DNA of 64,000 nucleotides from a candidate division WOR-3 bacterium UBA6260 (GTDB taxonomy: Bacteria; Hydrothermota; 32-111). The DNA is taken from NCBI GenBank assembly GCA_002441125.1, contig DJVI01000015.1, positions 69,315 through 133,314 of the forward strand, read 5' to 3'. The position numbers and the translations under genes were made by a program. The stretch's first letter is position 1, and each line of letters opens with the position of its first letter. Under the pieces are notes generated by a model. It was not told the DNA's origin. It searched no databases and saw only the letters and a list, made by a program, of their open reading frames with translations. Shown here piece by piece: positions 6,909 to 50,168 of this stretch.

Positions 6909-6917
6909 AATGCTCTC

Positions 6918-7346: not shown

Positions 7347-7355
7347 CCTTCCTCC

Positions 7356-7793
7356 TTACATCTCATCATCTTCTGCGGGAGATAGAGATATTTTCTCTTT
7401 TTTCTGAGTTTTTTCAAAAGCTATTTTAAGCTGGTCAAAAACTCTTATCATATAGTCGTATTTGGCTGATCTTGTTGGTATTATAGAAAATATCAAAGAA
7501 TCCCCGTTGGGTTGTTTTAAAAGATCCATAGCTTTATCAGCAACTGAAGTCCATTCAACAGGATCATTTTCTATCCTTACATCTCCAAACCTGTTTATCC
7601 TAACATGGACAATATTTTTTGAAAGAACGGTTATTGTCTCTTTAGATTCTTCAGGAAGAACTATCTGAAGTCCCATCTCTGTGTTAAAACTTGAAGTAAC
7701 AAGGAAGAAGATGAGCATCAAAAATGTTATATCTCCCAAAGATGCTGTAGGAATATCAGGTTTTTCAACTTTCTTTTTTCTTTTAAATAACAT
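7356..7793 (-). CDS. exbD: biopolymer transport protein ExbD/TolR (second paralog)
   Basis: 145 aa, TM ITFLMLIFFLVTSSF, paralogous to 6918..7346. Confidence 0.8.
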   Translation of the reverse strand: MLFKRKKKVEKPDIPTASLGDITFLMLIFFLVTSSFNTEMGLQIVLPEESKETITVLSKNIVHVRINRFGDVRIENDPVEWTSVADKAMDLLKQPNGDSLIFSIIPTRSAKYDYMIRVFDQLKIAFEKTQKKEKISLSPAEDDEM

Positions 7794-7805
7794 TTTTTCT
7801 CCTGA

Positions 7806-8432
7806 TTATGCTTCCTCTATCTCCAGACTCATTAAAATTTCAATTATTTTATTTGATGCATCCTCTAAAGTTCTTGAATAACCATTTATAACTGTTTGGA
7901 AATATGTATAAGCTGCTGAAACTGGAATAGCTATAACAAGACCTGTAAGGGTTGTTATCAAAGCTTCTGAAATACCACTTGCAACGAGTTTTGGCTCAAC
8001 TGTTCCGGCAAGTGCTATAGCATCAAAAGCGTTTATCATTCCTGAAACTGTTCCCAAAAATCCAAGCATTGGAGCAAGTGTTATCACAGCAGATAAAAAT
8101 GGCATACCTCTATCAAGAAAAGCGAGCTCTGTAACACCTGCTTTTCCGATAGCATCCTCTATAGCACCTTTATCCTTTCCAACATACTGGAACTCAGTTA
8201 ATGCTGATTCTATTATCCTTGCAAAAGGACTTGGATTCTTAGCACAAAACTGTATTGCCGCATCTATTCCCTCTTTCTCTATTTTCTTTTTTAACTCTTC
8301 AACGAATTTTTTTGGATTCTTGTTCATTATCAGAAGAGTTACAAATCTTTCAATGATAAAAACTACACCTATAATCGCACATGCAAGTAGTGGCCACATT
8401 GTCCATCCACCTCTCTGGAATAAATCTAACAC
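7806..8432 (-). CDS. exbB: MotA/TolQ/ExbB proton channel
   Basis: 208 aa, 3 TM, conserved C-terminal region (LAFLDRGMPFLSAVITLAPMLGFLGTVSGMINAF). Confidence 0.85.
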   Translation of the reverse strand: MLDLFQRGGWTMWPLLACAIIGVVFIIERFVTLLIMNKNPKKFVEELKKKIEKEGIDAAIQFCAKNPSPFARIIESALTEFQYVGKDKGAIEDAIGKAGVTELAFLDRGMPFLSAVITLAPMLGFLGTVSGMINAFDAIALAGTVEPKLVASGISEALITTLTGLVIAIPVSAAYTYFQTVINGYSRTLEDASNKIIEILMSLEIEEA

Positions 8433-9253: not shown

Positions 9254-9931
9254 TTATTTCATACTTTGTAAAATTTTTTCTACCATCTTCTGTGACTGAC
9301 TTGGACCTATTATCATTGATGATGCTTTTGAAAATCTTTTCAAAAATTCATCAAGTTTACTCTGACTTAAGTTTTTTATATCCAATTTCATTTCTGAAAC
9401 AATGTTGTTAATTATATCTTCTGCAAAATCCTCAAGGAACTCACCAGCGATTTTTTTGATTTTATTGAAAGAATCACCATCAATGTTTAAAGTAGAAACG
9501 GTTTCCTCTTTTTCAACAATTTTCTCTTTGACTTCTTCTTTTACAGGTTGTGAAGGTTTAACAACTATCTTTTTCTTGTCCTTTAAAGCTATTTTAACTT
9601 TATCTTCCTTTTCCTCTTTTATAGATTCTTTTTCAACAATCTCAGCAAAATCTATATCATCAACTATAACATTCTTGTTAACTATCAATCCAAAAAAAGA
9701 ACCTTTTTTGTGGAAAAAAATTATCTTTTTATCTTCATTCTGGAATTCTATTTTATCAATTTTGGATACATTGGCTGCATCGAGTGATTGTTTTAAAACA
9801 ACTATTACCTGTTTAACAACATCATCTGTATAGCCAACAATACCTGTTTTTTGGATCATATCGTTTTCATTAGAGAAGACAAAATCAGCATCAAATTTTT
9901 CCCTTATCTTTTCTATATTGTACCCCATCAA
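9254..9931 (-). CDS. roadblock/LC7-like domain protein with acidic/lysine-rich linker
   Basis: N-terminal ~100 aa fits a roadblock/LC7 (MglB-like) pattern (MIQKTGIVGYTDDVVKQVIVVLKQSLDAA...KKIIFFHKKGSFFGLIVNKN), followed by an E/K-rich low-complexity region. Confidence 0.45.
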   Translation of the reverse strand: MMGYNIEKIREKFDADFVFSNENDMIQKTGIVGYTDDVVKQVIVVLKQSLDAANVSKIDKIEFQNEDKKIIFFHKKGSFFGLIVNKNVIVDDIDFAEIVEKESIKEEKEDKVKIALKDKKKIVVKPSQPVKEEVKEKIVEKEETVSTLNIDGDSFNKIKKIAGEFLEDFAEDIINNIVSEMKLDIKNLSQSKLDEFLKRFSKASSMIIGPSQSQKMVEKILQSMK

Positions 9932-9939
9932 GCCTCCCT

Positions 9940-10707
9940 TTATCTTTTGCTCAACTTTTCAATAACATTTTGAACCATTTTTTTCGCTTCAGATGCCCCA
10001 TAAACTTCAACCGCTTTTTTACACACTCCATCTATCAAAACTTTAGTTGTCCTTTGAATATCATCCCTACTTATTTCAACTGGAACTATATCTTTAATCT
10101 CTATTTTATCCTTTATATCGAGTGCTTTTTCTAAAATATCTAAATTTGAAAGATTATCTTTTATAAAATTGTTCCAGACCTTTCTATCACCACCTTGGGA
10201 GAACTCATCAACAAGAAGATTTAACTGTAGAATTTTTGAAAGTAAAAGTTTTCTCTCTATCTCTCCCAACATGTTAACTTCCTGTTGGGTTGATACATTT
10301 TCAAAAGGATTATAAGGTTTTTGAAAAGCTTCTTCAACTACAGGTTTGTTTTCAACTATCTTTTCTTCCTCAACTTTTGGAGACTCTGCTATTTTTTTAA
10401 ACTCTTCATAGAATCTATTCGTATCAACATCTCCATTGATTTTAAAAAGTAAAAATTCATTTTTTTCTGAAATCAAAATAAGGTTATTCCCATCAACCTT
10501 TATAAATGATATTAAAGGATAACCCATCTGAAATTTTTTAAATATAACATCTCCCGCAGAACCAAGAAATGCACCTATATCTCCGAGATTGTTAGGCTGT
10601 TCTCCAACTTTTTCAAGTATAGTTCCATCCTCCTTGTTCAATCTCATAGCCCCAAATACTGGAATGAAACCTTTCATTTTTTCAACTAGTTCAGAAAGTT
10701 CCATCAC
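9940..10707 (-). CDS. roadblock/LC7-like domain protein
   Basis: IPVFGAMRLNKEDGTILEKVGEQ...GDIGAFLGSAGDVIFKKFQMGYPLISFIKVDGNNLILISEKNEFLLFKI fits the roadblock fold pattern. C-terminal half unassigned. Confidence 0.45.
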   Translation of the reverse strand: MMELSELVEKMKGFIPVFGAMRLNKEDGTILEKVGEQPNNLGDIGAFLGSAGDVIFKKFQMGYPLISFIKVDGNNLILISEKNEFLLFKINGDVDTNRFYEEFKKIAESPKVEEEKIVENKPVVEEAFQKPYNPFENVSTQQEVNMLGEIERKLLLSKILQLNLLVDEFSQGGDRKVWNNFIKDNLSNLDILEKALDIKDKIEIKDIVPVEISRDDIQRTTKVLIDGVCKKAVEVYGASEAKKMVQNVIEKLSKR

Positions 10708-11584
10708 TCACCCCTTCTTTATTTAAAAGTTCCCTATATTTTTTCTTAGCTATCATTCCTCCATACTCTTCAACACCTTTTTCAACGATCTTTTCGAAAA
10801 GGATCTTTTTCATATTTCTCACTTTAGCTTCATCGATGAACCTGTCTGCATTGTCATCTATTTCAATCATTTCATTTTTGAATTTTAAAAATCCAGCTAT
10901 AATTTCAAAACCAGAGTTAGTTAAAAGATCAACTATAAAGTTGAACCAATCTTTGGAATTCGTATTTTTCACGGAGAAAGTATCAAGAATATTGTTTAAA
11001 CTTTTTTCAAAATCTTTTCTTAATTTTTCAACAAAAGATTTATCAAAAATAAGACCTTTTGAAATCAAATATTCCAAAGATTTATATGATTCTATAAGAG
11101 GAAGGTTGCTTTCTTTTATAACAGTTCTGATATTTTTTTTACCATCAACAATTCTAATTATTACCCAATCCGTTTTTCTCAAACTTATGTTATCTCCAAG
11201 TCCTTCAGCCCTCTTTTCCAAAACAGCATCGAAAGAAGGTAACCTTTTCAAAATATCATCAAACTCGATTCTTCTTTTTTCAATCTGTTCTATAAGAGAT
11301 GATGTGTTTTGTTGTTCGATTGTGATTTCGTCAGTTTTTTCACCATCAATATAAGTTATAACTCCGTTCCTTTCGATGGAGAGATTGTATAAAGCTTCTT
11401 CTCCTGTAAAAGTGTTATAAACTGCATGTTTTGGTAAACCGTTTTCAAAAAATATTTTCCCTTCTTTATCCTCAAAATTAAAAATAAGAACACCTGTTCT
11501 CTGTTTTGATGAGATGAGATTTATAAATTCAACTGGACTGAAAATCTCAAGATTCGCTTTTAAATCTACCTTCTCTTTATCCAT
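10691..11584 (-). CDS. DUF4388-domain protein
   Basis: N-terminus FSPVEFINLISSKQRTGVLIFNFEDKEGKIFFENGLPKHAVY matches the DUF4388 signature (DLLQLL..KTGVL...G.IYF..G.IV). Confidence 0.5.
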   Translation of the reverse strand: MDKEKVDLKANLEIFSPVEFINLISSKQRTGVLIFNFEDKEGKIFFENGLPKHAVYNTFTGEEALYNLSIERNGVITYIDGEKTDEITIEQQNTSSLIEQIEKRRIEFDDILKRLPSFDAVLEKRAEGLGDNISLRKTDWVIIRIVDGKKNIRTVIKESNLPLIESYKSLEYLISKGLIFDKSFVEKLRKDFEKSLNNILDTFSVKNTNSKDWFNFIVDLLTNSGFEIIAGFLKFKNEMIEIDDNADRFIDEAKVRNMKKILFEKIVEKGVEEYGGMIAKKKYRELLNKEGVSDGTF

Positions 11585-12312
11585 TCCTCATCCTTATATT
11601 TTTCAACAATTTTTTTAAACTCTAAATCGTTTAAATCTAACTCTACTTTTTGCCATTCAAAATCGAGCTCCCTAAAAAAAACTTTGTAAAATAAAAAAGA
11701 CATATCTTTGATATTATAATTTAAACCTGTTAAATTTTCAATATTGTTTGAAAATTTTTTCCCATAAATTTTTTCCTGTGGTATAACGCTTTCTTTTACA
11801 AGAATAGTTCCCTGTTGTAAAAAATTTTTTTCAGAGAATGTCTGGGCACTCCCAACTATCTTTTCTCCATTTAAACTTATCTCGTACACAGATTGTGATC
11901 CAAAACAATCAGCTATAAAATTATCTTTCTTTTCACCCTGAGTCAGTTTCGCATTTATACCTATCTTTTCAAAAGCTTTTATAAAGATCTCTGAAATTTT
12001 TTTATACCTTTCTAAAAGACCTCCATTTTTACCAAAGAATTCAATGTTGCCAACAAAAGAGTAAGTCAGATCTCCACTATGTAAAACAGCTCTTCCTCCA
12101 GTCATCCTTCTTGTTATATCAATACTCTCTCTTTTTATATAATCATAATCTATTCCAAAATTGTACCTTTGATTGTATCCGATTGTAATTGAAGGTTTAG
12201 AAAAAGAATAGAATCTGAAAAAAACAGTATCAATGTTTTTATAAGCCCATTCATCACAAGCCATATTTGTATAAACATCAAAAACAGAGTAATCTAAATA
12301 GTAACCTTTCAT
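11566..12312 (-). CDS. lipoate--protein ligase / octanoyltransferase family (BPL/LPL catalytic domain)
   Basis: 248 aa. RRMTGGRAVLHSGDLTYSF resembles the LplA RRxTGGGAVxHD motif. Later K-containing motif (GEKIVGSAQ). Confidence 0.65.
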   Translation of the reverse strand: MKGYYLDYSVFDVYTNMACDEWAYKNIDTVFFRFYSFSKPSITIGYNQRYNFGIDYDYIKRESIDITRRMTGGRAVLHSGDLTYSFVGNIEFFGKNGGLLERYKKISEIFIKAFEKIGINAKLTQGEKKDNFIADCFGSQSVYEISLNGEKIVGSAQTFSEKNFLQQGTILVKESVIPQEKIYGKKFSNNIENLTGLNYNIKDMSFLFYKVFFRELDFEWQKVELDLNDLEFKKIVEKYKDEEWIKRR

Positions 12313-12929
12313 CTTAAAACTTTAAGCCAATCTGATAAAAGGAAATATATCCTTCCTATTAAAAGTGAAATACGAGCCATAACCGTATAACCGAATGATG
12401 CCCCAAAAGCAACCATTATGAAGGTTATACCTATTTTTGATCCCCATCTTAAAACACCTTTCTGTTCTTTTGAGAAATAGAAGTAAATGAGTGTTGTCAG
12501 AACACCAAATACTATCAGAAAGTTGTTAAAAGTTTCAAAATTGAATCCTGTCAAGGGAACAAGAGTTGCCTGAACCTGAGGCAGTATGAAACCTTGTATA
12601 GCACCTGTAACTCCAAGTCCCGCACCCATTCCGACTGTGAACGCTATAGACCATCTTGATAACCATGATATCTGTGGAAACCATCTTGTTAACATTATTA
12701 TTCCAAAAAATGCAGGTATTATAAGAATGAACTGTTTATTTTTGATCATAGGATCGAGAAGCATAGGTTGTATAACATAAGCCCATGTGTATATTATCCA
12801 GTATCCTGCAGTTATTCCAACATAAAGATGTTCAGCGAATTTGTAGAAAGGGTTATCCTTATAAAGGAAAGAATATATAAATAGGGTTAAACCAGCAGCG
12901 ATCCAAATTCCAATTGTTGTTCCCATCAT
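12309..12929 (-). CDS. module copy 1, gene D: polytopic membrane protein of unknown function
   Basis: 206 aa, ~6 TM. Shares IWIAAGLTLFIYSFLYKDNPFYKFAE.../...GITFIMVAFGA.FGYT.MAR.SL.IGRI.FLLSDWL with 15720..16325. Confidence 0.6.
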   Translation of the reverse strand: MMGTTIGIWIAAGLTLFIYSFLYKDNPFYKFAEHLYVGITAGYWIIYTWAYVIQPMLLDPMIKNKQFILIIPAFFGIIMLTRWFPQISWLSRWSIAFTVGMGAGLGVTGAIQGFILPQVQATLVPLTGFNFETFNNFLIVFGVLTTLIYFYFSKEQKGVLRWGSKIGITFIMVAFGASFGYTVMARISLLIGRIYFLLSDWLKVLR

Positions 12930-13768
12930 TTTCCTCCTTCTTTATTTTTCATTCCCTTTTCGATGAAATAAGCAATGTTTCCTAAAACTATGAAAAGTAT
13001 TATTACAAGATGTGAATAGGATTGTGATGCCATACCTGCTACAGCAAGATCAGGTTTATCAACAAGAACTTCATATTCTGCAGCACCTTTCATACCTCCA
13101 ACGAGTCCAACAATCTGACCTGATTGATAAAAGTAATAAGCATCAGGTGCTGAAACAGCGTTCAAAGCGAGAGCTATCTTCTGTTTGAACCTTCCACCTG
13201 CGTACTCGATCCAAGCAAGATATGTTGAACCGGCTTCAAGACCAACAAGTAGTGCAATATCATTATAGTTGTGAACATTCTTCATCATAGGGAATGAATC
13301 AAGAGGAATATTTCTATAATCTACCTTGAAATAGTCCCTTATCTCTTTTCCTATACCGACCATCTGGGCAACATAACCTGGTCTGTATCCTAAATTTATA
13401 TAATCAACACCATACACTGCTCCCATCTCTTTTGCAATTTTCTCAAGTCCCATAGTTCCAAGTGGAGCTCCAAGTTGCCATTGAACTATAAGTATTGGTT
13501 TTAACTTGTTTTTAAAAAGTTGTCTTAAAAGAGCTTCAAGAAATGGCTGCTGTTCAGGCATTGAAGCTGCATCGTAATCTATCGAAATCAAAACATTACT
13601 TCCTTCAGGCAATTTTTCTATATAATCGTAAACATCTTGAACAGGTTTTGAAACAACAACCGGAAATTTTGGTTTAAATATTAAAGGTAGAACAACTACC
13701 AAAGCTATGAAAAGGTATATGAATCTTCTATCTATTTTTGAAAGTTTTATAAAAAAATTCATAATCAC
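12926..13768 (-). CDS. module copy 1, gene C: bitopic membrane protein (N-terminal TM, extracytoplasmic domain, C-terminal TM)
   Basis: 280 aa. Paralogous to 16325..17191 (shared ...RWIYL.LAL....P..F..., GG.KGAAEYE.L.DK, ...NIAYF..K). No recognisable family. Confidence 0.6.
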   Translation of the reverse strand: MIMNFFIKLSKIDRRFIYLFIALVVVLPLIFKPKFPVVVSKPVQDVYDYIEKLPEGSNVLISIDYDAASMPEQQPFLEALLRQLFKNKLKPILIVQWQLGAPLGTMGLEKIAKEMGAVYGVDYINLGYRPGYVAQMVGIGKEIRDYFKVDYRNIPLDSFPMMKNVHNYNDIALLVGLEAGSTYLAWIEYAGGRFKQKIALALNAVSAPDAYYFYQSGQIVGLVGGMKGAAEYEVLVDKPDLAVAGMASQSYSHLVIILFIVLGNIAYFIEKGMKNKEGGK

Positions 13769-13771
13769 TCC

Positions 13772-14410
13772 TTATGAAAGATAACTTCTTTCTATACCCA
13801 AAATTATCCTTATGGAAACACCCAAAGCACCTAAAGATATTCCAAGTCCAATTCCTCTTTTTGCAGCCATCTGTGGTACCTGCATTATCCATTCGGTAAA
13901 TTTTGGAAGGTAAGGGGAAATCTGTTCTCCAAGTGGAACCCTTCCGAGCATAACTATTATAGCTGTAATGAGTAGAAGTGTAGCATCAAAATTTCTTGCT
14001 CTGAAAGCTCTGTAAGCTGCAGATGCTATAAAGAAAGCGAGAAGTGAAAACATTGTTGACTGTAATGGAACGATAAAATAGTTGTATATGTATGTAAAAT
14101 AGGATTTATCGTCGAACGCTGTTCCAAACCTTACTGTTTCTATAATACCAACTACAACTGTTGCGGTGAAACCAAGTATAAGAACCAATGAAAAGAACCA
14201 GTTCTCATCTTTTCTCTTCAACTTTCTAAAATGCATTCCTATCAAAGAATCAACCCCAAGAAGCATTGTAAAACCAGCTATTATCGAATACCAGTTCAAA
14301 GATATTTTCTCTATATCACCAAAAGGTTTATGAGGAATAAAGAAAGAGATTATCATTATCATTCCAACCAAAAATGTTATAAAAATCGGGATCCCTTTTC
14401 CTTTCAACAT
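13772..14410 (-). CDS. module copy 1, gene B: polytopic membrane protein of unknown function
   Basis: 212 aa, ~6 TM. Conserved core QSTMFSLLAFFIASAAYRAFRARNFDATLLL.TA.IV.LGRVPLGE shared with 17188..17865. Confidence 0.6.
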   Translation of the reverse strand: MLKGKGIPIFITFLVGMIMIISFFIPHKPFGDIEKISLNWYSIIAGFTMLLGVDSLIGMHFRKLKRKDENWFFSLVLILGFTATVVVGIIETVRFGTAFDDKSYFTYIYNYFIVPLQSTMFSLLAFFIASAAYRAFRARNFDATLLLITAIIVMLGRVPLGEQISPYLPKFTEWIMQVPQMAAKRGIGLGISLGALGVSIRIILGIERSYLS

Positions 14411-14421
14411 TTTTCCTCCTA

Positions 14422-15741
14422 CTAAACTTGTAAAGCTCTAGCTAACAGATCGAATAGATTTTTAAAAATTCCTATATTGAATCCATAAGCAAAAATAGAT
14501 AGGACAAAACCAACTATTATCAAAACCATTATAAAAACTTTCAAAAGGTCTTCAGCAGCGATCGAACCAAGCATCATTGGTTCTTTCTGAAGGTAAACTG
14601 AAGCAGCCATCATTTCCTCTCCTATAAGAGTATAGTCGCATGCTGCAACAAAGAATGGTAGTTGTGCTGTTTCAGTTGTACCAGAAATCTGTATCGCACC
14701 AATTGAATGTCCAGTTTCAGCGAGTATCAAAGATTCTGCAAAGAATAAACCTTGAAGGAAGACCGCTCCCGGTTTTTCCCTCATCATCATACCATCAACA
14801 CCTGCTGCATATCCAAACTGATCCTGAGTTATATACATTATATCGTTTTTATTATAAAGGTCTGGTCTACCAGCTTCAGTGAAAGCTTCTTTAACAACCT
14901 CCTGTGCTGTTGTCATAACAACAGGATCATAGGAAGGAACAAGAATCTTTGTTTCATACTCTGCAACCTTTTTAGAAACTCTACTAAGAATTGTAAGTCC
15001 AGCTATAGTTGGAATATCTGTAACATAACCTATTCCGAGAATATACATTATCGGTTTTCCCATCTCTGTACTTCTACCAACAGCCTCTTCAACAGCATCA
15101 AGTCCATTTATCTTTCTGATGTAAAGTTCTTTTCCACTTTTCGCAAGGTTCAGATAGTATAAAAAGACGAAAGAGATAAGTATAAGAGATATAACTACTG
15201 GAATCCTTGAAAGGTTAAACCATGAAGCTTTTGAAATAATGGCATCTGTCTCAGCTGTAACATAAAATGTATCATTATTGAAAATGTAGATACCATTTTT
15301 TGAGTAACCATTCTCTTTTGAAATCAACATGTTCAAAAAATCTTCATCTACCATCTTTTTACTCAAAATTCCAGTGTAGTAATATTTTGTTCCATCCTTT
15401 ACTCTTGATGGATCTTCTTCTGAGCTAACATCTCTTACCTGTTTTGATGAAACAAGAAGGTCTGTTGCAACAATAGAGTTGTTCCCAGCCTCATCCTTTC
15501 TCAAAACAGTTAAAAAAAAGTTATCCAAAGAATCAGGAAAGGACCACTCTATTTCTATACCACCTCCACCATCGTTAGGGATATCTTTACCTGTAATAGC
15601 GAATCCTTCAAAAGGTGTTTGATTCTCTAAAAAAATCAAACTATCATTTTCAGAGAAAAGTGAGATTGAAAGAATAAGAAAAACTATCAAAAGAAGGGTT
15701 CTTTTTAACACCTCTCCTCCTATTTTATTATTCCAAGCCAA
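14422..15741 (-). CDS. module copy 1, gene A: large membrane protein of unknown function (signal/TM, variable ectodomain, TM, conserved cytoplasmic domain, C-terminal TMs)
   Basis: 439 aa. C-terminal ~220 aa is ~60% identical to 17874..19097 (GK.L..RKI.GLD...EAVGR.TEMG.P..Y...DI.TIA.L.IL..V.KK.AEYETK...P..DP.VMT.A.EVVKE...EAGRPD.YN.NDI...T..QFGYAA.V.G.M.REKP...). N-terminal ectodomain diverged. Confidence 0.6.
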   Translation of the reverse strand: MAWNNKIGGEVLKRTLLLIVFLILSISLFSENDSLIFLENQTPFEGFAITGKDIPNDGGGGIEIEWSFPDSLDNFFLTVLRKDEAGNNSIVATDLLVSSKQVRDVSSEEDPSRVKDGTKYYYTGILSKKMVDEDFLNMLISKENGYSKNGIYIFNNDTFYVTAETDAIISKASWFNLSRIPVVISLILISFVFLYYLNLAKSGKELYIRKINGLDAVEEAVGRSTEMGKPIMYILGIGYVTDIPTIAGLTILSRVSKKVAEYETKILVPSYDPVVMTTAQEVVKEAFTEAGRPDLYNKNDIMYITQDQFGYAAGVDGMMMREKPGAVFLQGLFFAESLILAETGHSIGAIQISGTTETAQLPFFVAACDYTLIGEEMMAASVYLQKEPMMLGSIAAEDLLKVFIMVLIIVGFVLSIFAYGFNIGIFKNLFDLLARALQV

Positions 15742-16325
15742 TCTGAAAGAAGAAACTGTATTCTTCCTATAAAGAGGGAAACTCTCGCCATAATAGTGTA
15801 TCCGAAAGCTGCTCCGAATGCAACCATTATGAAAGTTATTCCAACTCTTGAAACTCTTCCAACGAAACCTTTATGTTCGAGAGAAAAGAAAAAATAGACT
15901 AAAGTTGAAATTACTCCAACAACTATGATCAAACTTCCAAAATCCAATTTTAAAGGCATAGTTGCATATACCTGTTTAAAAAGAAATTCGAAAGATGAAG
16001 GAACTGAAAGTCCTGTTCCAGCACCAACAACAAAAGCTATAGGTATTCTTGAAAGATAGGAAACATTTTTAAAAAACCTTGAAAACATCAATAAACCGAG
16101 CAGAAGCGGAATCAAAACAAGGAAATTCTTATCGTAAACAAGAGGGTTATAAACTTTCGTAATTATAGTGTTGTGCCAGTAAACTGATATACCGTAACCT
16201 ATAGATATTCCTACAAGAAGATATTCTGCAAACTTGTAGAAAGGATTGTCTTTATATAGAAAAGAATAGATAGCAAGTGTAAGTAAAGCAGCTATCCATA
16301 TCCAAAAATTAGTTGCAATAGCCAT
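15720..16325 (-). CDS. module copy 2, gene D (paralog of 12309..12929)
   Basis: 201 aa polytopic membrane protein. N- and C-terminal blocks collinear with copy 1 gene D. Confidence 0.6.
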   Translation of the reverse strand: MAIATNFWIWIAALLTLAIYSFLYKDNPFYKFAEYLLVGISIGYGISVYWHNTIITKVYNPLVYDKNFLVLIPLLLGLLMFSRFFKNVSYLSRIPIAFVVGAGTGLSVPSSFEFLFKQVYATMPLKLDFGSLIIVVGVISTLVYFFFSLEHKGFVGRVSRVGITFIMVAFGAAFGYTIMARVSLFIGRIQFLLSDWLGIIK

Positions 16326-17191
16326 TATTTACCCTCCTTTCTCTTCTTAACAAAATATGCGATGTTTCCAAGAATGATAAGTATAATAAAAAATATGTGT
16401 GCTGAAGATTGTGCATCCATCCCTATAGAAGCATCCTTTCTTCCACCATAAACATTTTTCTTATCAAGTAAATGTTCATATTCTGCAGCACCTTTCAAAC
16501 CACCAAGCATTCCTATCGCCTGTTTTGACTGGAGGTAAGAATAATACTCGGCTGCTGATACAGCGGTTGTTCCAATACCCATTTTCAAACCATACCTTCC
16601 ATTTGCATAGATGAGCCATGTCAAAACAACAGAACTACCGGCGAGTTCAACCATAAGGTTTATATCATTATAATTTTTTATCCCTTTCATAACTTCAAGT
16701 TCAGAGAGTTTATTTCCATAGCCATCCTCATTGAAAGTTTGAGTTATATCCTCTCCCATCTTCAAAACAACAGCACTTACTCCCGGAACATAGGCGAGTA
16801 ATGTTATATCTTTTCCAAGTTGTTTCTGATTTTCAGGATTGCTTTTGTTCCATTCTTTTAAAACATTATCTATTGCATCCTGTGCCATTCCAGCACCCTG
16901 TGGATACAGTGTTACAAAGAGAACTCTTAAATTGTTTGATAGAGCGTGTGCTGCTATAACTTTTGCCATAGGATGAAGTTCAGCCATTGTTGATGGATCA
17001 TAATCTGCACCTATCAGAACAACTCCTCCTTCTGGAATAGAGTCCTCAATAAAATCATAGATAGATTTTACAGGAGGTGTAGTTTTCATAGGGAATCCAA
17101 CCGGAAACAAAAAGGGTATTATTATGCATAAAGCGAGAATAAGATATATCCATCTTTTATCAAGATTGCTGATAAAATTTATAAATTTCAT
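16325..17191 (-). CDS. module copy 2, gene C (paralog of 12926..13768)
   Basis: Track ORF 16325..17317 is over-extended. Paralog alignment (MKFINFISNLDKRWIYLILAL vs MIMNFFIKLSKIDRRFIYLFIAL) places the start at the internal ATG at 17191. That gives a 4-nt overlap with gene B, as in copy 1. Confidence 0.55.
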   Translation of the reverse strand: MKFINFISNLDKRWIYLILALCIIIPFLFPVGFPMKTTPPVKSIYDFIEDSIPEGGVVLIGADYDPSTMAELHPMAKVIAAHALSNNLRVLFVTLYPQGAGMAQDAIDNVLKEWNKSNPENQKQLGKDITLLAYVPGVSAVVLKMGEDITQTFNEDGYGNKLSELEVMKGIKNYNDINLMVELAGSSVVLTWLIYANGRYGLKMGIGTTAVSAAEYYSYLQSKQAIGMLGGLKGAAEYEHLLDKKNVYGGRKDASIGMDAQSSAHIFFIILIILGNIAYFVKKRKEGK

Positions 17192-17865
17192 TTTCCTCCT
17201 CCAAGATATTTCCTTTCTATTCCAAGTATAATCTTTATAGATGTTGCTATAATACCAAGTTGGACACCTATAAGTATTCCTCTCTGAGCTGCCATATTCG
17301 GATATTTCAAGATCCATTCAACAACATCTGGAAGCCCTTTGTAAATGAATTCACCAAGTGGAACCCTTCCAAGAGTTACTATACCTGCTGTTACCAAAAG
17401 CAAAGTGGCATCAAAACTTCTCGCTCTGAAAGATCTGAAAGCTGCTGAAGCCATATAGAAAGCGAGTAGTGAAAAAATTGTGGATTGCATAGGCATCTGC
17501 ATGTAAAGGTATGTATACATCAAAGGTGTTGTATCGGTTGGTTTTACAGAAGGAAAAATCTTCATCCATAAAGTTGTTGGCATGAAAGCACCACCAAAAA
17601 CTCCAAGTAAAGCAGTCACAAACAAAGAAACAAGAACGATAATAGAATACTGCCACCCCTCAACCTTTCTTTTAATCTTAGTAAAATGTAGTTCAACTGT
17701 TGACTGAACAGCAATAAGGTAAGTGAATGCTGATACTATTATAAGCCAATCTAACATCAAGTTGTAAAAACTTTTTGATGCTGGATGTGGTACAAAAAAT
17801 TGCAAAATGAGTGCTATACCAAAGATCGCTGATACTAAAAGTGGTAATGTTCTTCTTAAAAACAT
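17188..17865 (-). CDS. module copy 2, gene B (paralog of 13772..14410)
   Basis: 225 aa, ~6 TM. Conserved QSTIFSLLAFYMASAAFRSFRARSFDATLLLVTAGIVTLGRVPLGE core. Confidence 0.6.
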   Translation of the reverse strand: MFLRRTLPLLVSAIFGIALILQFFVPHPASKSFYNLMLDWLIIVSAFTYLIAVQSTVELHFTKIKRKVEGWQYSIIVLVSLFVTALLGVFGGAFMPTTLWMKIFPSVKPTDTTPLMYTYLYMQMPMQSTIFSLLAFYMASAAFRSFRARSFDATLLLVTAGIVTLGRVPLGEFIYKGLPDVVEWILKYPNMAAQRGILIGVQLGIIATSIKIILGIERKYLGGGK

Positions 17866-17873
17866 ATTAACTC

Positions 17874-19097
17874 CTAACTTTTAAATATGAATCTTAAAAT
17901 TTCAAGAATTTTATTTAGAAAAACCAAATTGCCACCTGTTATCCAAGAAATCAAAAGGATTACAAAATAAAAAGTAATAATAAAAATTATAAAACCTTTG
18001 AAATAATCTTGTGCTTTCAAAGTACCAAGCAAAAGTGGTTCCCTTGAAAGGTAAGCACTTGCAGCGTAAAGCTCCTCTCCAATTATAGTATAATCACAAG
18101 ATGTTATAAAAAATGGCAACTGTGTTACAGCATCTGTTCCTGCTATCTGAATAGCACCTGTTGTATTTCCTGCTTCAGCCATGATGAGTGATTCAGCCCA
18201 AAACATTCCGAGAAGTAGGTTTGTGGCTGGTTTCTCTCTTGTCATTATTCCTGAAACTGCAGCAGCGTATCCAAACTGAGAATCAGTTAAGAAGAATATA
18301 TCGTTATCGTTGTAAACATCTGGTCTTCCGGCTTCAGAGTAAGATTCTTTAACAACCTCTTTGGCAACAGTCATAACTATAGGATCCCTGTTTGGAACTA
18401 TAAGTTTTGTTTCATACTCCGCAATCTTTTTTGCTACAGGGCCAAGAATGTTCAAAGATGCTATAGTAGCTATATCTGACATTGAAGAAGAACCAGGGAC
18501 ATAAAGTACAGGTCTTCCCATCTCTGTTGCTCTTCCAACAGCTTCATCGAGTGTATCAAGACCTGAGATCTTCCTTACAAAAAGATCCTTTCCCTTTCTA
18601 ACACTTTCAACAAGGTAGATTATTACCATAGTGTAAATTATTATCATAAGTAAAAGTATAGTTTTATCAGTTTTAAAAAGATCAGCTTTTGGAGAAAAAT
18701 CACCTATCAAACATTTCTCAGATTCGTTACCCAAACTATCTGAAACCGCAAGATAATATTGGTATTTTTTTTGATAGGATAATCCCTCATCAACTATTTT
18801 TACCGGAAAGGACTGAAAAGTTTTAACATTTTTAAAAACTGTATCATTTAACTCTTTCCTGTAAAGTTTGAATAAAGAGTTGTTCCCTTCAAGAACCTTT
18901 TGACATGAGATCTCGAGTTTACTTCCGTCATCGTTGGATACATCTTTAATTTGGAACTCTTTAACAATAGTTGAATCAACTCTAACTACTGGTTCATCTT
19001 TTGAAGTTTCATTCTGAGGGAATGTTATTATAAAAGAAAGAATTATAAAAATGAAAAAGAAGATTTTGTTTTTCATTTTACTCCTTTTATTCTTCAA
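17874..19097 (-). CDS. module copy 2, gene A (paralog of 14422..15741)
   Basis: 407 aa. Signal peptide/TM, divergent ectodomain, conserved C-terminal domain as in copy 1. Confidence 0.6.
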   Translation of the reverse strand: MKNKRSKMKNKIFFFIFIILSFIITFPQNETSKDEPVVRVDSTIVKEFQIKDVSNDDGSKLEISCQKVLEGNNSLFKLYRKELNDTVFKNVKTFQSFPVKIVDEGLSYQKKYQYYLAVSDSLGNESEKCLIGDFSPKADLFKTDKTILLLMIIIYTMVIIYLVESVRKGKDLFVRKISGLDTLDEAVGRATEMGRPVLYVPGSSSMSDIATIASLNILGPVAKKIAEYETKLIVPNRDPIVMTVAKEVVKESYSEAGRPDVYNDNDIFFLTDSQFGYAAAVSGIMTREKPATNLLLGMFWAESLIMAEAGNTTGAIQIAGTDAVTQLPFFITSCDYTIIGEELYAASAYLSREPLLLGTLKAQDYFKGFIIFIITFYFVILLISWITGGNLVFLNKILEILRFIFKS

Positions 19098-20208
19098 TCA
19101 ATTCAACATTCGCTCTTGGAAGCACTATCCTTTTACCATCCTCAAATTCAAATTCAAGAACCCTGACATGTGCTTCAGTTTCAATTTTTTGCAACTGTGA
19201 TGGGAGCCCAACAACTTTTCCTATTGCACCAAAATATGGCTGTCTTATTATTCTTACTACAGAATTGATATCCATTCCCATCTCAGCATGTTTCGATTCT
19301 TCAACAATAGTATCTATATCGTATGTAACTATAACTTCGGGTCTCATAACACCAGCCCTTATCTGAGTTGCACCATTTATTGAAGCCCTCTTACCATCAT
19401 TCTTTGAAAGAATATCGAAAGTTTTCTTCGCCATAGTCATCTGCCCGAACCCTTCTGTAACTATAACTGTAACTCCCTTCTCTTCCTGCCCGGTTATAGC
19501 AACACCTATCTCCTCACCAAGAAAATCCTTCAGATCCTTATCATCTATTCCACCAACAACAATACCTATAACTCCCTTTTTAACACATTCGTTTAAAATT
19601 TCACTTGTAACAAGGGATCCACCTATAACTATTTTTCCTTTCAAATCTTCAGTTATATCATTTTTAGTTAAAACATAGTCAGGTGATTTAGCAACAAGTT
19701 TCAACTCTCCCTTTACCTCTCCACCTATTCCGAAAATACCCTGAATGAATGTCGCTGGTGTTTGAACAACTATACCTTCATTCTCTATAACCTCAACAAC
19801 TTTTCCGTTAACATAAGCATCTATTTCGACCTTTTTTGGAGGTTTTCTTAAAGTCAACATTCCAGTTATATCAGAATAGTTTTCAACTATTCCATCGATA
19901 GGAGAAGGTATCGATGTTTTGAACAATCCTAAAAATCCTTTAGATTCAGCTATTATCTGATCTTTTTTTATCTTATCTCCAATAGAAACTTTCAAAAATG
20001 AACTCGCCTCTTTTGGAGGAACTCCAAGTTTTCCAGCAAGATTCAATCTCTCAACATCTCCTGGAAGTTCTGTCCTAGCAACTATATCATCAGCTTTCAC
20101 TAAATCTCCAACTTTAACAAGAACCTCTCCTTTTAAAGGTAATCTACGCTCTTTTTTTACTATTGCCTTTTCTGTAACTTTTAAACCAGGTGTATATGAA
20201 TGTGCCAT
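19087..20208 (-). CDS. hypothetical protein with hybrid-barrel (lipoyl/biotinyl-like) N-terminal motifs and a Gly-rich C-terminal region
   Basis: 373 aa, soluble. GEVLVKVGDLVKADDIVAR and IIAESKGFLGLFKTSIPSPIDGIVE resemble lipoyl/GcvH-like barrel strands. C-terminal GIVVGG...VIVTEGFG repeats. No confident family assignment. Confidence 0.4.
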   Translation of the reverse strand: MAHSYTPGLKVTEKAIVKKERRLPLKGEVLVKVGDLVKADDIVARTELPGDVERLNLAGKLGVPPKEASSFLKVSIGDKIKKDQIIAESKGFLGLFKTSIPSPIDGIVENYSDITGMLTLRKPPKKVEIDAYVNGKVVEVIENEGIVVQTPATFIQGIFGIGGEVKGELKLVAKSPDYVLTKNDITEDLKGKIVIGGSLVTSEILNECVKKGVIGIVVGGIDDKDLKDFLGEEIGVAITGQEEKGVTVIVTEGFGQMTMAKKTFDILSKNDGKRASINGATQIRAGVMRPEVIVTYDIDTIVEESKHAEMGMDINSVVRIIRQPYFGAIGKVVGLPSQLQKIETEAHVRVLEFEFEDGKRIVLPRANVELIEE

Positions 20209-20219
20209 AATTCCTCCAT

Positions 20220-22013
20220 TTATTTCTCAGGATAGACATTTAAAGCTTTTATCCATTTCTTCAACTTTTCTACCCTTTCATTATCATTTTCCGGGAGTAC
20301 AAAAGGTCTTCTTCCTCTTGCATCAACTATAACTCCAACTACTCCACCCTCAAGTTCAGCCTCAACCTCTTTACCTTTACCGTTACCAAGGTCAAGTCCC
20401 TTTGCAACACTTATTACAGCTTTTACTTTTTTGTTAAGTTCAAGAGGTATAACTCCCATATCGCCAAAATTGAATACGAATTCTTTATCATCAAATTTTA
20501 TCCTAACAGCTTCCTGCCCTTCCTTAATATTTCCCATAGGTGCTATACATGAACCTAACCTTATCAAACAGTCCTTTTCGAAAACTTCTGTTGCCGCTTT
20601 TTCATGAACGGTTGATAAGACACCAAGTTGTGGCATCATGAATATAGAATCAACTGTAAGCATGGTTATACCTTCAGGTAAAAATGCATCTATCATCATA
20701 AGAGCTGACTGTACTCTTCTTGGTGCATGAGAAAGAACTCCACCTGAGCCGACTATAAGGTTTAGTGTAAGCATGTTAACAAGTGTTTCTCCTGTACTCG
20801 TTTGTTCAAATGCATCGGAAATCGTTCTTTCTTTTTGAACTCCCTTAAGACCAACAGCCATAGTTTTATGTTGTTCGAGAGCGAGTCTTAAAGCTTCTCT
20901 CGAAATAGCTTGTTCTATCTGTAACTCATCCAAAGTTGATGGAATCGTGGTTGGTCTTATCATCTTATTTCGTATCCTGTTTCTAAGATCCTTTTCATCC
21001 ATATGGAATGGAACCCATCTCATAATATTTTTAAGTCCAGCTTCTTTAACAACATTTGAAATGGAATAACTCATACCAAGGTTTGCTGAAACTGTTCTGT
21101 TGAAAGTGTTCTGGAAGTATGAGAAAACATCCGTTGTTGCTCCTCCAATATCAACTCCCAAAACCTCTATCTTATCCCTTTTCCCTATAGTTTCAATCAA
21201 AAGACCAACGGCACCTGGAGTTGGCATTATTGGAACATCAGTCATATCCATAAGTTTTCTGTAACCCGGTGCCTGAGCCATAACATGTTCCATGAAAAGA
21301 TCATGTATTTTATCCCTTGCTGGTTTTAAATTCTCTTTTTCAAGTGTTGGTCTCAAATTATCAACAATATAAAGTGCAGTTTTCTTTTCAAGCCTTTCTT
21401 TTATCTCATCAACAGCTTTATTGTTACCAGCATATATTACAGGTAGTTTATACCCAGCACCAAATCTTGGTTTTGGATCAGCTGCCTGGATTATCTCGGC
21501 GAGTTGGACAACATGCGTTATGGTTCCTCCATCTGTTCCACCAGAAAGGAGTATCATATCAGGTCTTAATGTTCTAATCCTTTTTATCCTTTCATGGTCC
21601 ATCCTCTTATCGTTTGTTGCAATAACATCCATAACTATCGAACCTGCACCGAGCGCAGCCCTTGCGGCAGATTCGGCACTCATTTTGTCAACAACACCAG
21701 CAACCATCATCTGTAAACCACCACCTGCAGAAGATGTTGAAATGTAGATGTCAACTCCATCACCTTCACTCTTCTCTCTTTTTATTATATTGTCTCCATC
21801 CAAAATCTTTATTCCAGCGAGTTCTTCAACCTCTTTTATTGCGTTGAGAACACCCTTTGTAACATCTTCATAAGGTGCTTCAACTGTTGTGGGAGCTTCA
21901 CCTCTAACTATCAAACGATATTCGTTTTCTCTTTTTTCTATCAAAATAGCTTTTGTTGTGGTGGATCCACAATCAGTTGCAAGTATTCTCGTAATTTGAT
22001 CCTTCTCTTTCAT
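20220..22013 (-). CDS. ASKHA-fold protein related to glutamate mutase accessory protein GlmL/MutL
   Basis: 597 aa. N-terminal ILATDCGSTTTKAIL phosphate-1 motif and overall layout resemble GlmL (MutL) family ATPases. Longer than canonical GlmL, so function is uncertain. Confidence 0.5.
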   Translation of the reverse strand: MKEKDQITRILATDCGSTTTKAILIEKRENEYRLIVRGEAPTTVEAPYEDVTKGVLNAIKEVEELAGIKILDGDNIIKREKSEGDGVDIYISTSSAGGGLQMMVAGVVDKMSAESAARAALGAGSIVMDVIATNDKRMDHERIKRIRTLRPDMILLSGGTDGGTITHVVQLAEIIQAADPKPRFGAGYKLPVIYAGNNKAVDEIKERLEKKTALYIVDNLRPTLEKENLKPARDKIHDLFMEHVMAQAPGYRKLMDMTDVPIMPTPGAVGLLIETIGKRDKIEVLGVDIGGATTDVFSYFQNTFNRTVSANLGMSYSISNVVKEAGLKNIMRWVPFHMDEKDLRNRIRNKMIRPTTIPSTLDELQIEQAISREALRLALEQHKTMAVGLKGVQKERTISDAFEQTSTGETLVNMLTLNLIVGSGGVLSHAPRRVQSALMMIDAFLPEGITMLTVDSIFMMPQLGVLSTVHEKAATEVFEKDCLIRLGSCIAPMGNIKEGQEAVRIKFDDKEFVFNFGDMGVIPLELNKKVKAVISVAKGLDLGNGKGKEVEAELEGGVVGVIVDARGRRPFVLPENDNERVEKLKKWIKALNVYPEK

Positions 22014-22342
22014 TTATCCTCCTTAATATCCTTCTTCTTTCTCTTATGTTGATTTTCAAAATCTTCTATATACCTTATAAGTTTTTCAACAGAATCTCTC
22101 TCTTCAAAAATAAGAGATGCTTCACGGTACTCTTTTATGTTAAAAAATGTCAAAATTATTGGTTCCAGAAAAATCATTATCTGAGCACTTATGAAATTCA
22201 TAGGTTTTATGGATTCGAGAAACATTATAGCTGGAGCTGTCAAACTCCTCTTTACAATATTCTCAGCTATCTTTTTTAATATCTCCTCTTTCCTTTCAAG
22301 AGGAATCTCTTTTGGACTAACAGGTTGAAAACTCTTATCCAT
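22010..22342 (-). CDS. hypothetical small protein
   Basis: 110 aa. Overlaps gcvPB stop by 8 nt and the downstream gene start by 4 nt, which suggests translational coupling. Confidence 0.4.
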   Translation of the reverse strand: MDKSFQPVSPKEIPLERKEEILKKIAENIVKRSLTAPAIMFLESIKPMNFISAQIMIFLEPIILTFFNIKEYREASLIFEERDSVEKLIRYIEDFENQHKRKKKDIKEDK

Positions 22343-23789
22343 TATTTTCCCTGTACCAGTTTACAAAAAGATTTTTCAAAGCGTAAATATCATCAGGTCT
22401 TGAAACTGGAGTTGATGAAGGTGCACTTTTAACTTTTTCAGGATCATTTTTGGCTTCCTCATCTATCTTTTTCATAGCTTCTATGAAAGAGTCTAAAGTT
22501 TCCTTTGATTCGGTTTCGGTAGGTTCTATCATTATCGCTTCGGAAACTATAAGTGGGAAATATACTGTTGGAGCGTGGAAACCGTAATCCAAAAGTCTTT
22601 TTGCTATATCGAGAGTTGTAATGTTGTAATCCTTTTTATGTTTTCTTCCACTGAAAACAACCTCATGCATAGTTTCATTTTTGTAAGGCAGATCGTATAT
22701 ATTCTGAAGTTTCCTTTTAATGTAATTAGCGTTAACTATTGCCATCTTTGAAGCCTCACTCAAACCATCCCTTCCCATAACTTTTAAATAAGCCCAAGCT
22801 CTTATCATTATGTTTACATTACCATAGAATGAATGTAAAGATCCGATAGATTTTTCAGGATAATCTAATGAATATTTCCCATTTTCAAATTTTACTATGT
22901 AAGGTGGAAGAAAATCTTTTAATTTTTCCACAACTGCAACTCCACCTGCACCGGGTCCACCACCTCCATGTGGAGTTGAAAAAGTTTTATGAAGGTTGAT
23001 ATGTAAAATATCGAATCCTATTTTTCCAGGCTTTACTATTCCCATAAGTGCGTTCATGTTAGCTCCATCCATATATATAAGTCCACCTTTACCATGAACA
23101 ATCTGAGAGATCTTCTCTATCCTGCTTTCAAAAATTCCAAGTGTGTTTGGATTGGTTATCATTATTCCTGCTGTATCCTCATCCATATTCTTTTCAAGAT
23201 CGTCAAGATCTATTTCGCCATTTTGATCAGATTTTATCTGAACAGCTTTAAAACCTGAAAGTGTTGCTGAAGCTGGATTTGTTCCATGTGCTGAATCTGG
23301 AATAAGTATCTTTGTCCTCTTTTCGTTTTTACTCTTAAAATAATCACTTATAATCATCATTCCAGCAAACTCACCATGCGCACCGGCAACTGGTTGCAAA
23401 GAGATTTTAGAAAATCCTGTAACTTTCAAAAGCATATCCTGTAATTCATACATTATCTGAAGTATCCCTTGAACATCATCCTCATCCTGATATGGATGTA
23501 ATTTTGTAAATTTCGGATTTGAAGAGATATCTTCGTTTATAACTGGATTGTATTTCATCGTACATGATCCCAAAGGATAAAATCCCTTTTGAAGATGATG
23601 GTTTTTGTTTGAAAGTAAAACAAAATGTCTCAAAAGATCTATCTCTGAGACAACAGGCAATGATGTTTCTTCTTTTCTGAGATTATCACTTTTTATACAA
23701 TCTGAGAGTTTTATTGGAAATTGGTTTTCAGGTAATGAAACAATATTTGTATCTTCATCTGATAATTTAAAAATCAATCTATCATACAT
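22335..23789 (-). CDS. gcvPB: glycine dehydrogenase (decarboxylating) subunit 2
   Basis: 484 aa. PLP-dependent, signature GSCTMKYNP and HINLHKTFSTPHGGGGPG. Confidence 0.9.
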   Translation of the reverse strand: MYDRLIFKLSDEDTNIVSLPENQFPIKLSDCIKSDNLRKEETSLPVVSEIDLLRHFVLLSNKNHHLQKGFYPLGSCTMKYNPVINEDISSNPKFTKLHPYQDEDDVQGILQIMYELQDMLLKVTGFSKISLQPVAGAHGEFAGMMIISDYFKSKNEKRTKILIPDSAHGTNPASATLSGFKAVQIKSDQNGEIDLDDLEKNMDEDTAGIMITNPNTLGIFESRIEKISQIVHGKGGLIYMDGANMNALMGIVKPGKIGFDILHINLHKTFSTPHGGGGPGAGGVAVVEKLKDFLPPYIVKFENGKYSLDYPEKSIGSLHSFYGNVNIMIRAWAYLKVMGRDGLSEASKMAIVNANYIKRKLQNIYDLPYKNETMHEVVFSGRKHKKDYNITTLDIAKRLLDYGFHAPTVYFPLIVSEAIMIEPTETESKETLDSFIEAMKKIDEEAKNDPEKVKSAPSSTPVSRPDDIYALKNLFVNWYRENNG

Positions 23790-23934
23790 AACTACTCCTT
23801 AAAATTTTTAAAGAATTATTTTATATTAACAAGATAATAATGTCAACAATTTAATTTCTAAAATGTCAACAATTTTTATTGAAAAATTTTTTAAAATTAT
23901 TATAATTTTTTCAGGGAAATTTTGGAGGGAAAAT

Positions 23935-50037: not shown

Positions 50038-50052
50038 ATATTTTCCTTTTTT

Positions 50053-50130
50053 TCAGGCGGCGGAGACAGAGGGCTTTTACTGCTGCTTCCTTTCGGATCT
50101 GACAGGGTTCAAGACATATCTCCCCGCCAT
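50053..50130 (-). ncRNA. ffs: signal recognition particle RNA (small 4.5S-type), upstream of dnaX
   Basis: Minus-strand sequence GGCGGGGAGAUAUGUCUUGAACCCUGUCAGAUCCGAAAGGAAGCAGCAGUAAAAGCCCUCUGUCUCCGCCGCCUG. Contains the conserved domain IV core (CAGAUCCGAAAGGAAGCAGC, cf. E. coli GGUCCGGAAGGAAGCAGC). 5' GGCGGGGAGA pairs with 3' UCUCCGCC. Canonical position 5' of dnaX-ybaB-recR. Confidence 0.75.
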
Positions 50131-50168
50131 TTTTATAATACCATTTATAAAACTATTTTCAAGATGAA

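Follow-up and report, generated by a model that had tools for sequence, protein, structure and literature searches.

A duplicated four-gene membrane-protein module and a neighbouring GlmL/MutL-family ATPase gene in candidate division WOR-3 and other bacterial phyla

We analysed a stretch of 64,000 nucleotides from the candidate division WOR-3 bacterium UBA6260 (contig DJVI01000015.1, positions 69,315 to 133,314), called the window below. It encodes, twice in tandem and in the same order, four membrane proteins that we name A, B, C and D. Directly upstream lie three further genes, X, M and S, of which M encodes an ATPase of the GlmL/MutL type. The A-B-C-D order recurs in many genomes, and the four proteins probably belong together. 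We rate the module as new as a system, because we found no described system that matches it and the membership tests that we ran for known systems all failed, though one part, protein A, already has a family entry as a domain of unknown function (DUF). The eight open reading frames (ORFs) of the two modules lie on the minus strand in the order A2-B2-C2-D2-A1-B1-C1-D1. They span 12309-19097 when taken as longest ORFs, and 12309-19076 with the starts given here:

17874..19076, minus strand: A2, 400 amino acids; Pfam DUF6754, E = 3.6e-117; ATG at 19076 with an AAGGAG Shine-Dalgarno (SD) sequence; public gene call of 400 amino acids
17188..17865, minus strand: B2, 225 amino acids, about six transmembrane (TM) helices; conserved cytoplasmic loop AAYRAFRAR, C-terminal LGIERxYLGGG, variable TM3-TM4 loop
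16325..17191, minus strand: C2, 288 amino acids; TM helix, predicted extracytoplasmic alpha/beta domain of ~220 amino acids, TM helix; ATGA overlap with the B2 stop
15720..16325, minus strand: D2, 201 amino acids, about six TM helices; conserved LYKDNPFYKFAEH and GFGASFGYTVMARxSLLIGR motifs, variable TM4-TM5 loop
14422..15711, minus strand: A1, 429 amino acids, paralogue of A2 with a different, longer ectodomain; DUF6754, E = 9e-112; GTG at 15711 after a GGAGGAG SD sequence; the exact 429-amino-acid product is on record
13772..14410, minus strand: B1, 212 amino acids, 45% identical to B2
12926..13762, minus strand: C1, 278 amino acids, 37% identical to C2; the homologue P0121 is a 100% match of 278 amino acids
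12309..12929, minus strand: D1, 206 amino acids, 53% identical to D2

Public gene calls on an identical contig have the same lengths (400, 225, 288, 201, 429, 212, 278 and 206 amino acids). An earlier note on this DNA, made from the letters alone, had given A as 439 and 407 amino acids. These are the longest ORFs, read from TTG codons; the SD sequences and the public calls give 429 (A1) and 400 (A2). Consecutive genes are joined by start/stop overlaps or by spacers of at most 10 nucleotides. The ATGA-type overlaps described in that note are real at B2/C2, C1/D1 and D1/lplA. The 22-nucleotide overlap that it placed between D2 and A1 is an artefact of taking the longest ORF, since A1 starts at GTG 15711, and is in fact an 8-nucleotide spacer with an SD sequence.

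The note had also proposed an old, retained duplication of four genes, and this claim held. The copies are recognisable as homologues in all four pairs (blastp, E = 1e-61 to 1e-95), but the two A proteins align only across their C-terminal 228 amino acids, at 54% identity, their N-terminal ectodomains being unalignable as had been stated. The previous estimates of ~60% for the C-terminal part of A and ~50% for B were slightly high. As DNA, only patches of the two modules can be aligned, with 66-78% identity. We found no similarity between the A, B, C and D families (blastp; hhalign probability below 1% for all pairs), so homology between subunits (B with D, or the core of A with the domain of C) was ruled out and each module is made up of four unrelated protein families. 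The low DNA and protein identity and the lack of cross-family similarity argue that the duplication is real and old. An assembly artefact or a recent repeat was ruled out by the patchy DNA identity and by the existence of positional orthologues in other genomes. For 23 of the 27 modules that lie in multi-module loci, the nearest relative belongs to another genome; module 1 of the window pairs with module 1 of locus L002, and module 2 with module 2 of L002 and with L065. Recent extra duplications of the module occur in a few lineages (L058, L020). The duplication is ancient, positionally orthologous and retained.

Selection on the genes was assessed by the ratio of non-synonymous to synonymous substitution rates (dN/dS) against locus L082, a relative that is ~90% identical in nucleotides, and not between the paralogues, whose synonymous sites are saturated at 37-54% protein identity. 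The ratio is 0.02-0.09 for all eight genes, which points to strong purifying selection on each of them and hence to two functional copies. Within A, the ectodomains evolve faster (0.08-0.18) than the cores (0.03-0.04).

We fetched 167 loci, and counted gene order for A genes with more than 2.6 kb of downstream sequence. B, C and D follow A in this order in 88 of 100 cases, with one to three tandem modules per locus; the earlier note had proposed such a survey of order and copy number. Of the 12 other A genes, most are orphan extra copies, and one locus (L057) reads A-B-D-C. These orphans, without B, C and D of their own, occur mainly in Fermentibacteria and Cloacimonadota, as ABCD followed by A (L037, L044, L048, L049, L063), as A-A-B-C-D (L030, L039) or as A alone (L026). 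The distance matrices of the four proteins are correlated across 96 modules (r = 0.65-0.81), a figure that is confounded by the species phylogeny. Modules that have been duplicated remain cognate sets. The correlation fits cognate sets that would be inherited together, with a contribution from shared phylogeny.

The module is no curiosity of a single genome, and three of its four proteins fall in no described family while the fourth is a DUF. The A family comprises at least 8000 clusters at 90% identity, with at least 596 confirmed stretches in a collection of one genome per species; a library clustered at 50% identity contains 2332 representatives of the D family at E ≤ 1e-3. Judged by record titles and names, carriers include WOR-3, Stahlbacteria, Eisenbacteria, Edwardsbacteria, Cloacimonadota, Fermentibacteria, Poribacteria, Latescibacterota, Zixibacteria, TA06, CSSED10-310, Marinimicrobia and Armatimonadota. 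All carrier records that we examined are metagenome-assembled genomes (MAGs) or metagenome contigs. Candidate division WOR-3 is the source of the closest named proteins, and M of the window is 100% identical to M on the 893-kb metagenome contig Ga0073932_1000002 (L081). Across phyla, the cytoplasmic and membrane cores remain ~50-60% identical.

The statement that none of the proteins belongs to a named family held for B, C and D and failed for A. A1 and A2 are full-length members of DUF6754 (PF20539), with 390.5 and 372.8 bits against a cut-off of 27, E-values of 1e-112 to 1e-117 and model positions 2-250 of 257 covered, and their homologues carry PF20539 as well. The family is defined as a domain of unknown function and its definition is silent on the partners B, C and D and on X-M-S; our literature search found no paper mentioning DUF6754, PF20539 or PF13941. 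The Pfam model spans TM1, a Rossmann-like domain and a C-terminal TM. By the positive-inside rule and AlphaFold2 models, A consists of a signal/TM segment, an ectodomain, a TM helix, a cytoplasmic domain and a C-terminal TM. The model of A2 (mean pLDDT, the predicted local distance difference test, 79.8) has an N-terminal signal/anchor helix, a TM helix, a Rossmann-like domain and C-terminal TM helices. The Rossmann-like domain is a six-stranded parallel alpha/beta fold (residues 178-351), predicted to be cytoplasmic because basic residues follow TM1. Among 91 sequences, 59 columns of its core are invariant, and these gather in the loops along both edges of the sheet.

The ectodomain of A is an Fn3 domain, by profile matches and by Foldseek against the PDB, where Fn3 was the only hit and the core gave no significant match. 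The core resembles the C-terminal halves of GT-B glycosyltransferases (UGT78G1 3hbj, LpxB 5w8x, heptosyltransferases) at 5-10% identity. This likeness is weak: Sir2, transhydrogenase, methyltransferase and HAD folds score equally and there is no second Rossmann domain. We take it as a generic Rossmann resemblance and not as family membership. The ectodomain is dispensable as well as variable: L066 and L163 lack it, and in Cloacimonadota it reaches ~700 amino acids without a Pfam match.

The topologies that had been claimed for all four proteins agree with the positive-inside rule and with the AlphaFold2 models of A2 and B2, and so does the picture of variable extracytoplasmic parts on a conserved core, given ectodomains of A from none to ~700 amino acids and insertions in the loops of B and D. 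B and D have about six TM helices each. In B, the cytoplasmic loop AAYRAFRAR and the C-terminus LGIERxYLGGG are highly conserved, and the periplasmic TM3-TM4 loop may hold a C-like domain or a CBM_4_9 module. The CBM_4_9 module and the Fn3 domain of A give the periplasmic decorations a glycan-type character. Six representatives of B (P0241-P0245, and P0356 from Zixibacteria) have a complete C-like domain inserted in the TM3-TM4 loop (hmmsearch E = 1e-24 to 1e-39). For P0241 (L040:1255-2598), the one whose context was checked, a separate C gene lies alongside and is 41% identical to the insert. Such a Rosetta-stone arrangement is, in our view, the strongest evidence that the subunits may associate physically. 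C itself has a TM helix, an alpha/beta domain of ~220 amino acids and a second TM helix. The domain is predicted to be periplasmic because basic residues flank it on the cytoplasmic side at both ends, in agreement with its insertion in the loop of B. In D the motifs LYKDNPFYKFAEH and GFGASFGYTVMAR are conserved, and the TM4-TM5 loop has soluble insertions of up to ~400 amino acids in 34 of the 150 best representatives. Long D proteins (P0468, P0473, P0495, P0503 and others) carry inserts of 200-400 amino acids at this point without a Pfam match, and one insertion, in P0394, has an EF-hand-like calcium-binding loop.

We found no match for B, C or D in Pfam, NCBIfam, PADLOC or PDB sequences, whether with single proteins, family members or profiles. 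Pfam was run on 72 C, 28 B and 27 D family members, and the PDB profile searches covered A, B, C, D, S and M; DUF6754, Fn3 and MutL were the only known families that came up. B had no detectable counterpart among solved structures, C and D no detectable homologue in the libraries searched, and the homologues of C are all annotated 'hypothetical'. As the earlier note had supposed, these searches revealed no characterised family holding all four proteins.

The same note had stated that no ATPase is encoded with the module. This proved wrong, as a GlmL/MutL-type ATPase of the ASKHA class is encoded directly upstream, together with S and X:

19087..20208, minus strand: S, 373 amino acids, soluble, with an N-terminal barrel-sandwich-hybrid region; weak Biotin_lipoyl and RnfC_N matches
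20220..22013, minus strand: M, 597 amino acids, GlmL/MutL-family ASKHA ATPase; Pfam MutL, E = 6e-128
22010..22342, minus strand: X, 110 amino acids, one hydrophobic stretch, always found with M; no Pfam match
23818..23846, minus strand: promoter-like site TTGACA-17-TAAAAT upstream of gcvPB

M matches Pfam MutL end to end (428 bits) and keeps both ASKHA phosphate motifs (DCGSTTTK and VDIGGATTD), followed by an extra conserved C-terminal region of ~115 amino acids. It stays below the NCBIfam equivalog thresholds (229 against 475 for GlmL, 216 against 600 for Or-4) and below that of the subfamily TIGR01319 (169 against 204). While M shares the MutL match and the ASKHA motifs with GlmL and Or-4, it is linked instead to X, S, ABCD and gcvPB, and no glmS/glmE, aminomutase, B12-binding or mutase gene occurs among its neighbours. 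Across loci, M is 63-73% identical to the window protein; S is 41-60% identical across phyla. Lipoylation of S, an idea that came from gcvP, lplA and the barrel-sandwich fold, was ruled out because the candidate lysine (K90) is not conserved. PADLOC-DB gave no match for A-D, M or S and a chance-level one for X (E = 0.003), and thus no indication of a known anti-phage defence system.

The promoter-like site is likely the start of one long operon, gcvPB-X-M-S-ABCD-ABCD-lplA and onwards, and we detected no strong terminator from 23789 to 8507. Since some 19 tightly packed, unrelated-looking genes run through this region without one, co-transcription in the window says little by itself. Among M loci with at least 6 kb on both sides, ABCD is adjacent in 11 of 23. 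X-M-S lies beside ABCD in MAGs of WOR-3, Eisenbacteria, Armatimonadota and Marinimicrobia, and S is immediately upstream of A in many loci. The genes may be rearranged and still adjacent, as in M-S-X-ABCD, in ABCD-X-M-S or with divergent M and S (L051). An Armatimonadota MAG has MutL, a 115-amino-acid gene, S, A, B, C and D in otherwise unrelated flanks; Marinimicrobia contigs have MutL, S, a 90-amino-acid gene, A, B, C and D, again in unrelated flanks and without gcvP. A functional link between X-M-S and ABCD is suggested because their adjacency survives rearrangement and recurs in Armatimonadota and Marinimicrobia with unrelated flanks. S is a probable partner of the module. Fusions joining S, M or X to A-D were absent from ~510 proteins and all ORFs of the loci.

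Envelope genes are a further recurrent neighbour, besides X-M-S and gcvPB. The genes frr-uppS-cdsA lie directly upstream of ABCD and co-directional with it in L011, L030 and L166, and the order cdsA-M-S-X-ABCD, likewise co-directional, is found in L154, L159, L160 and L163. In the window, the frr-uppS-cdsA (-dxr-rseP) cluster is at 26766-31265, ~7 kb upstream of ABCD. The ATPase set can itself be duplicated: L117 and L138 have M-S-X-M-S in tandem, preceded by an M20-type amidohydrolase-like gene and without ABCD within 10 kb.

The order and conservation of the genes, the membrane topology, the domain folds in A, the B-C domain link and the frequent linkage to X-M-S lead us to infer that A, B, C and D would be subunits of one inner-membrane complex, of which the window encodes two paralogous versions. 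B and D, with about six TM helices each, would build the membrane core together with TM helices contributed by A and C. On the periplasmic side would lie the soluble part of C, the ectodomain of A (an Fn3 domain in the window) and those loops that vary in B and D. On the cytoplasmic side, the extremely conserved Rossmann-like domain of A would lie beside the arginine-rich conserved loops of B, and this face could dock S, M and X. One X-M-S set may serve one to three ABCD modules. The complex might translocate a glycan-containing or lipid-linked component of the envelope, or alternatively a periplasmic nutrient, and each module would owe its choice of partner or ligand to its variable periplasmic parts. 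The idea of the earlier note, receptor/transporter complexes with different specificities, stays plausible.

We tentatively prefer to see in these genes an ATPase-assisted inner-membrane translocase, possibly related to the envelope given the synteny with frr-uppS-cdsA. A slight preference for an envelope substrate, lipid- or glycan-linked, comes from the housekeeping-level conservation, the uppS-cdsA synteny, the Fn3 and CBM decorations and the weakly GT-B-like core of A. We are more doubtful of a wider claim, that X-M-S and (ABCD)n represent a new class of envelope machines in which an ATPase of the ASKHA (actin/Hsp70-like) class, and not an ABC, AAA+ or P-type ATPase, powers a four-subunit translocase, one ATPase set serving several modules. 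The MAGs in which the system occurs bear the labels of FCB-group candidate phyla and of Armatimonadota. Were an ASKHA-driven translocase or envelope machine to be confirmed, membranes would be coupled to energy in a new way, and a missing piece of cell biology could be supplied for phyla that are largely uncultured and carry the module in their MAGs. Defining the system would also annotate together thousands of 'hypothetical' membrane proteins.

Several observations weigh against a translocase driven by M. M or S is found in only 2 of the 32 A loci with at least 4.5 kb on both sides, which would mean either that the two units are independent of each other or that most ABCD modules lie apart from a single X-M-S set. 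X-M is linked to gcvPB at least as tightly as to ABCD. The order gcvPB (with X at 22010-23789 in the window) followed by X-M is very frequent among M loci (L083-L146), also where S and ABCD are absent within the next 5-10 kb (L084, L088, L093, L129, L140). The TM and cytoplasmic parts are very highly conserved, as is unusual among transporters of diverse substrates, and B has no invariant charged residue inside any TM helix. The GlmL-like ATPase M may have a function linked to the P-protein of glycine cleavage. Our literature search found nothing linking GlmL with glycine cleavage in a relevant way. Other glycine-related genes recur near gcvPB-X-M, namely gcvH, sarcosine-oxidase-like FAD (flavin adenine dinucleotide)/2Fe-2S proteins and a serA-like dehydrogenase. 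In some lineages, that of the window included, the whole block lies between gcvPB and lplA.

It is possible, if somewhat improbable, that the modules serve nutrient uptake. C would then be a tethered substrate-binding domain and B with D the permease, the ectodomain of A and the inserts of B and D would capture glycans or peptides, the modules would differ in substrate, and M would be a cytoplasmic kinase or ATPase. The presence of several paralogous modules with variable periplasmic domains, CBM_4_9 and Fn3 among them, speaks for this, as do neighbours that are often catabolic (gcvP, gcvH, sarcosine-oxidase-like, serA-like, aminotransferase) or ExbB/ExbD/TonB genes. Two 6-TM subunits with a bitopic periplasmic alpha/beta domain also recall tripartite transporters. 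However, we detected no resemblance in sequence or fold to transporters of any family, and the TM cores are about as conserved as the cytoplasmic domain, between paralogues and across phyla, which is not what different substrate pathways would lead one to expect. Neither a regulator nor a riboswitch or other RNA clue to a ligand was found near the system in the window and seven related loci.

The scarcity of M and S at well-flanked A loci, where both are missing from 30 of 32, would be explained if ABCD were self-contained and unrelated to X-M-S. It would then be an ion-driven or passive complex that might act, for instance, as a stator-like motor, as a tether of the envelope or as a scaffold, and the X-M-S/gcvP/lplA neighbourhood would be synteny inherited in compact genomes. 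The many loci with X-M beside gcvPB and without ABCD are consistent with this view, as is the window operon of ~19 packed and unrelated-looking genes without internal terminator. Invariant residues suited to such a complex exist: a glutamate at the start of TM2 in D, and a histidine and an asparagine in the C-terminal TM of C. We nevertheless regard this explanation as unlikely, given an adjacency that survives rearrangement and persists with different flanks in Armatimonadota and Marinimicrobia, and given the tight junction of S with A, ~10 nucleotides between the S stop and the A2 start in the window and a 4-nucleotide overlap in L161.

The relatives of M suggest another possibility, which we consider very unlikely: a membrane enzyme resembling adenosylcobalamin mutases. 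M would be its reactivating chaperone, S the catalytic subunit and the Rossmann domain of A the cofactor-binding part, while the membrane part would couple the chemistry to the envelope or to the movement of ions. The only known relatives of M, GlmL/MutL and Or-4 of the ornithine pathway, are described as chaperones that reactivate glutamate mutase (PMC4682846). The S profile gives TIM-barrel-type matches (GGGP synthase, NanE), which are weak and non-significant (E = 0.04-0.1). In adenosylcobalamin mutases a TIM barrel is combined with a B12-binding domain of the Rossmann type. Yet the core of A has no DxHxxG-type motif and no invariant histidine, and there is no cobalamin riboswitch or cobalamin gene nearby. 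Still less probable is a transmembrane sensor whose variable ectodomains perceive envelope or environmental ligands and signal through the cytoplasmic domain of A: the hypervariable extracytoplasmic parts on an invariant cytoplasmic domain, a DUF4388/PATAN protein downstream in the window and in L060, and a response regulator after D in L161 would fit it, but the seven proteins contain no kinase, cyclase, HAMP, PAS or other output domain, A without ectodomain exists (L066, L163), and regulators are not consistently adjacent.

Known membrane systems resemble the module in architecture only. In the Rnf/Nqr complexes, RnfA/E recall B and D as two 6-TM subunits of ~200 amino acids, RnfG recalls C as a bitopic periplasmic protein, and the barrel-sandwich cytoplasmic subunit RnfC/NqrA recalls S, which has a weak RnfC_N match (8.5e-4). 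In contrast to these complexes, the module gave no Rnf-Nqr, FMN_bind or Fe-S Pfam matches, B and D are not homologous to each other and there are no cysteine clusters, so that membership in Rnf/Na+-NQR was not supported. TRAP/TTT transporters and GldA-F-G also combine small polytopic subunits with a periplasmic alpha/beta domain, and GldG, like C, has a TM anchor at both ends. They differ in that we found no DctQ/DctM/DctP, TctA/B/C, ABC-2 or ABC_transp_aux match, with proteins tested singly and over 27-72 family members each, and in that the nearby ATPase is ASKHA and not ABC. For GldF/GldG in particular, B, C, D and their family members lack ABC-2 and ABC_transp_aux, and the adjacent genes include no ABC ATPase. 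Neither A-D, X, M and S nor their neighbours gave an ABC_tran, ABC membrane, CbiQ or ECF match, which speaks against an ABC or ECF transporter. B and D have no MotA_ExbB match that would indicate a MotA/ExbB/TolQ stator; the true ExbB/ExbD/TonB genes of the window (6291-8432) were readily detected.

The latter form an ExbB-ExbD-ExbD-TonB operon, with a perfect TTGACA-16-TATAAT promoter-like site at 8503-8476 and a strong terminator at 6264-6235. ExbB genes adjoin ABCD or M-S in L002, L051, L095, L120, L124, L125, L130 and L133. After lplA, and joined by overlapping junctions, come the DUF4388/PATAN protein (10691-11584) and two unannotated proteins (9940-10707 and 9254-9931), a trio that is also present in L060. 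On the other side, two genes separate the rseP-dxr-cdsA cluster from gcvPB: one on the plus strand (23863-24705), with a sub-threshold match to a C-terminal sorting domain of the type IX secretion system (T9SS; 24.8 bits, the cut-off being 27), and one for an S8 subtilase on the minus strand (24792-26732). The T9SS-like protein, the subtilase and the TonB system suggest a diderm envelope of the FCB (Fibrobacteres-Chlorobi-Bacteroidetes) type. The window also contains a small signal recognition particle RNA (50050-50131, minus strand, 45.8 bits) and a flavin mononucleotide riboswitch (60211-60322, minus strand, 115 bits).

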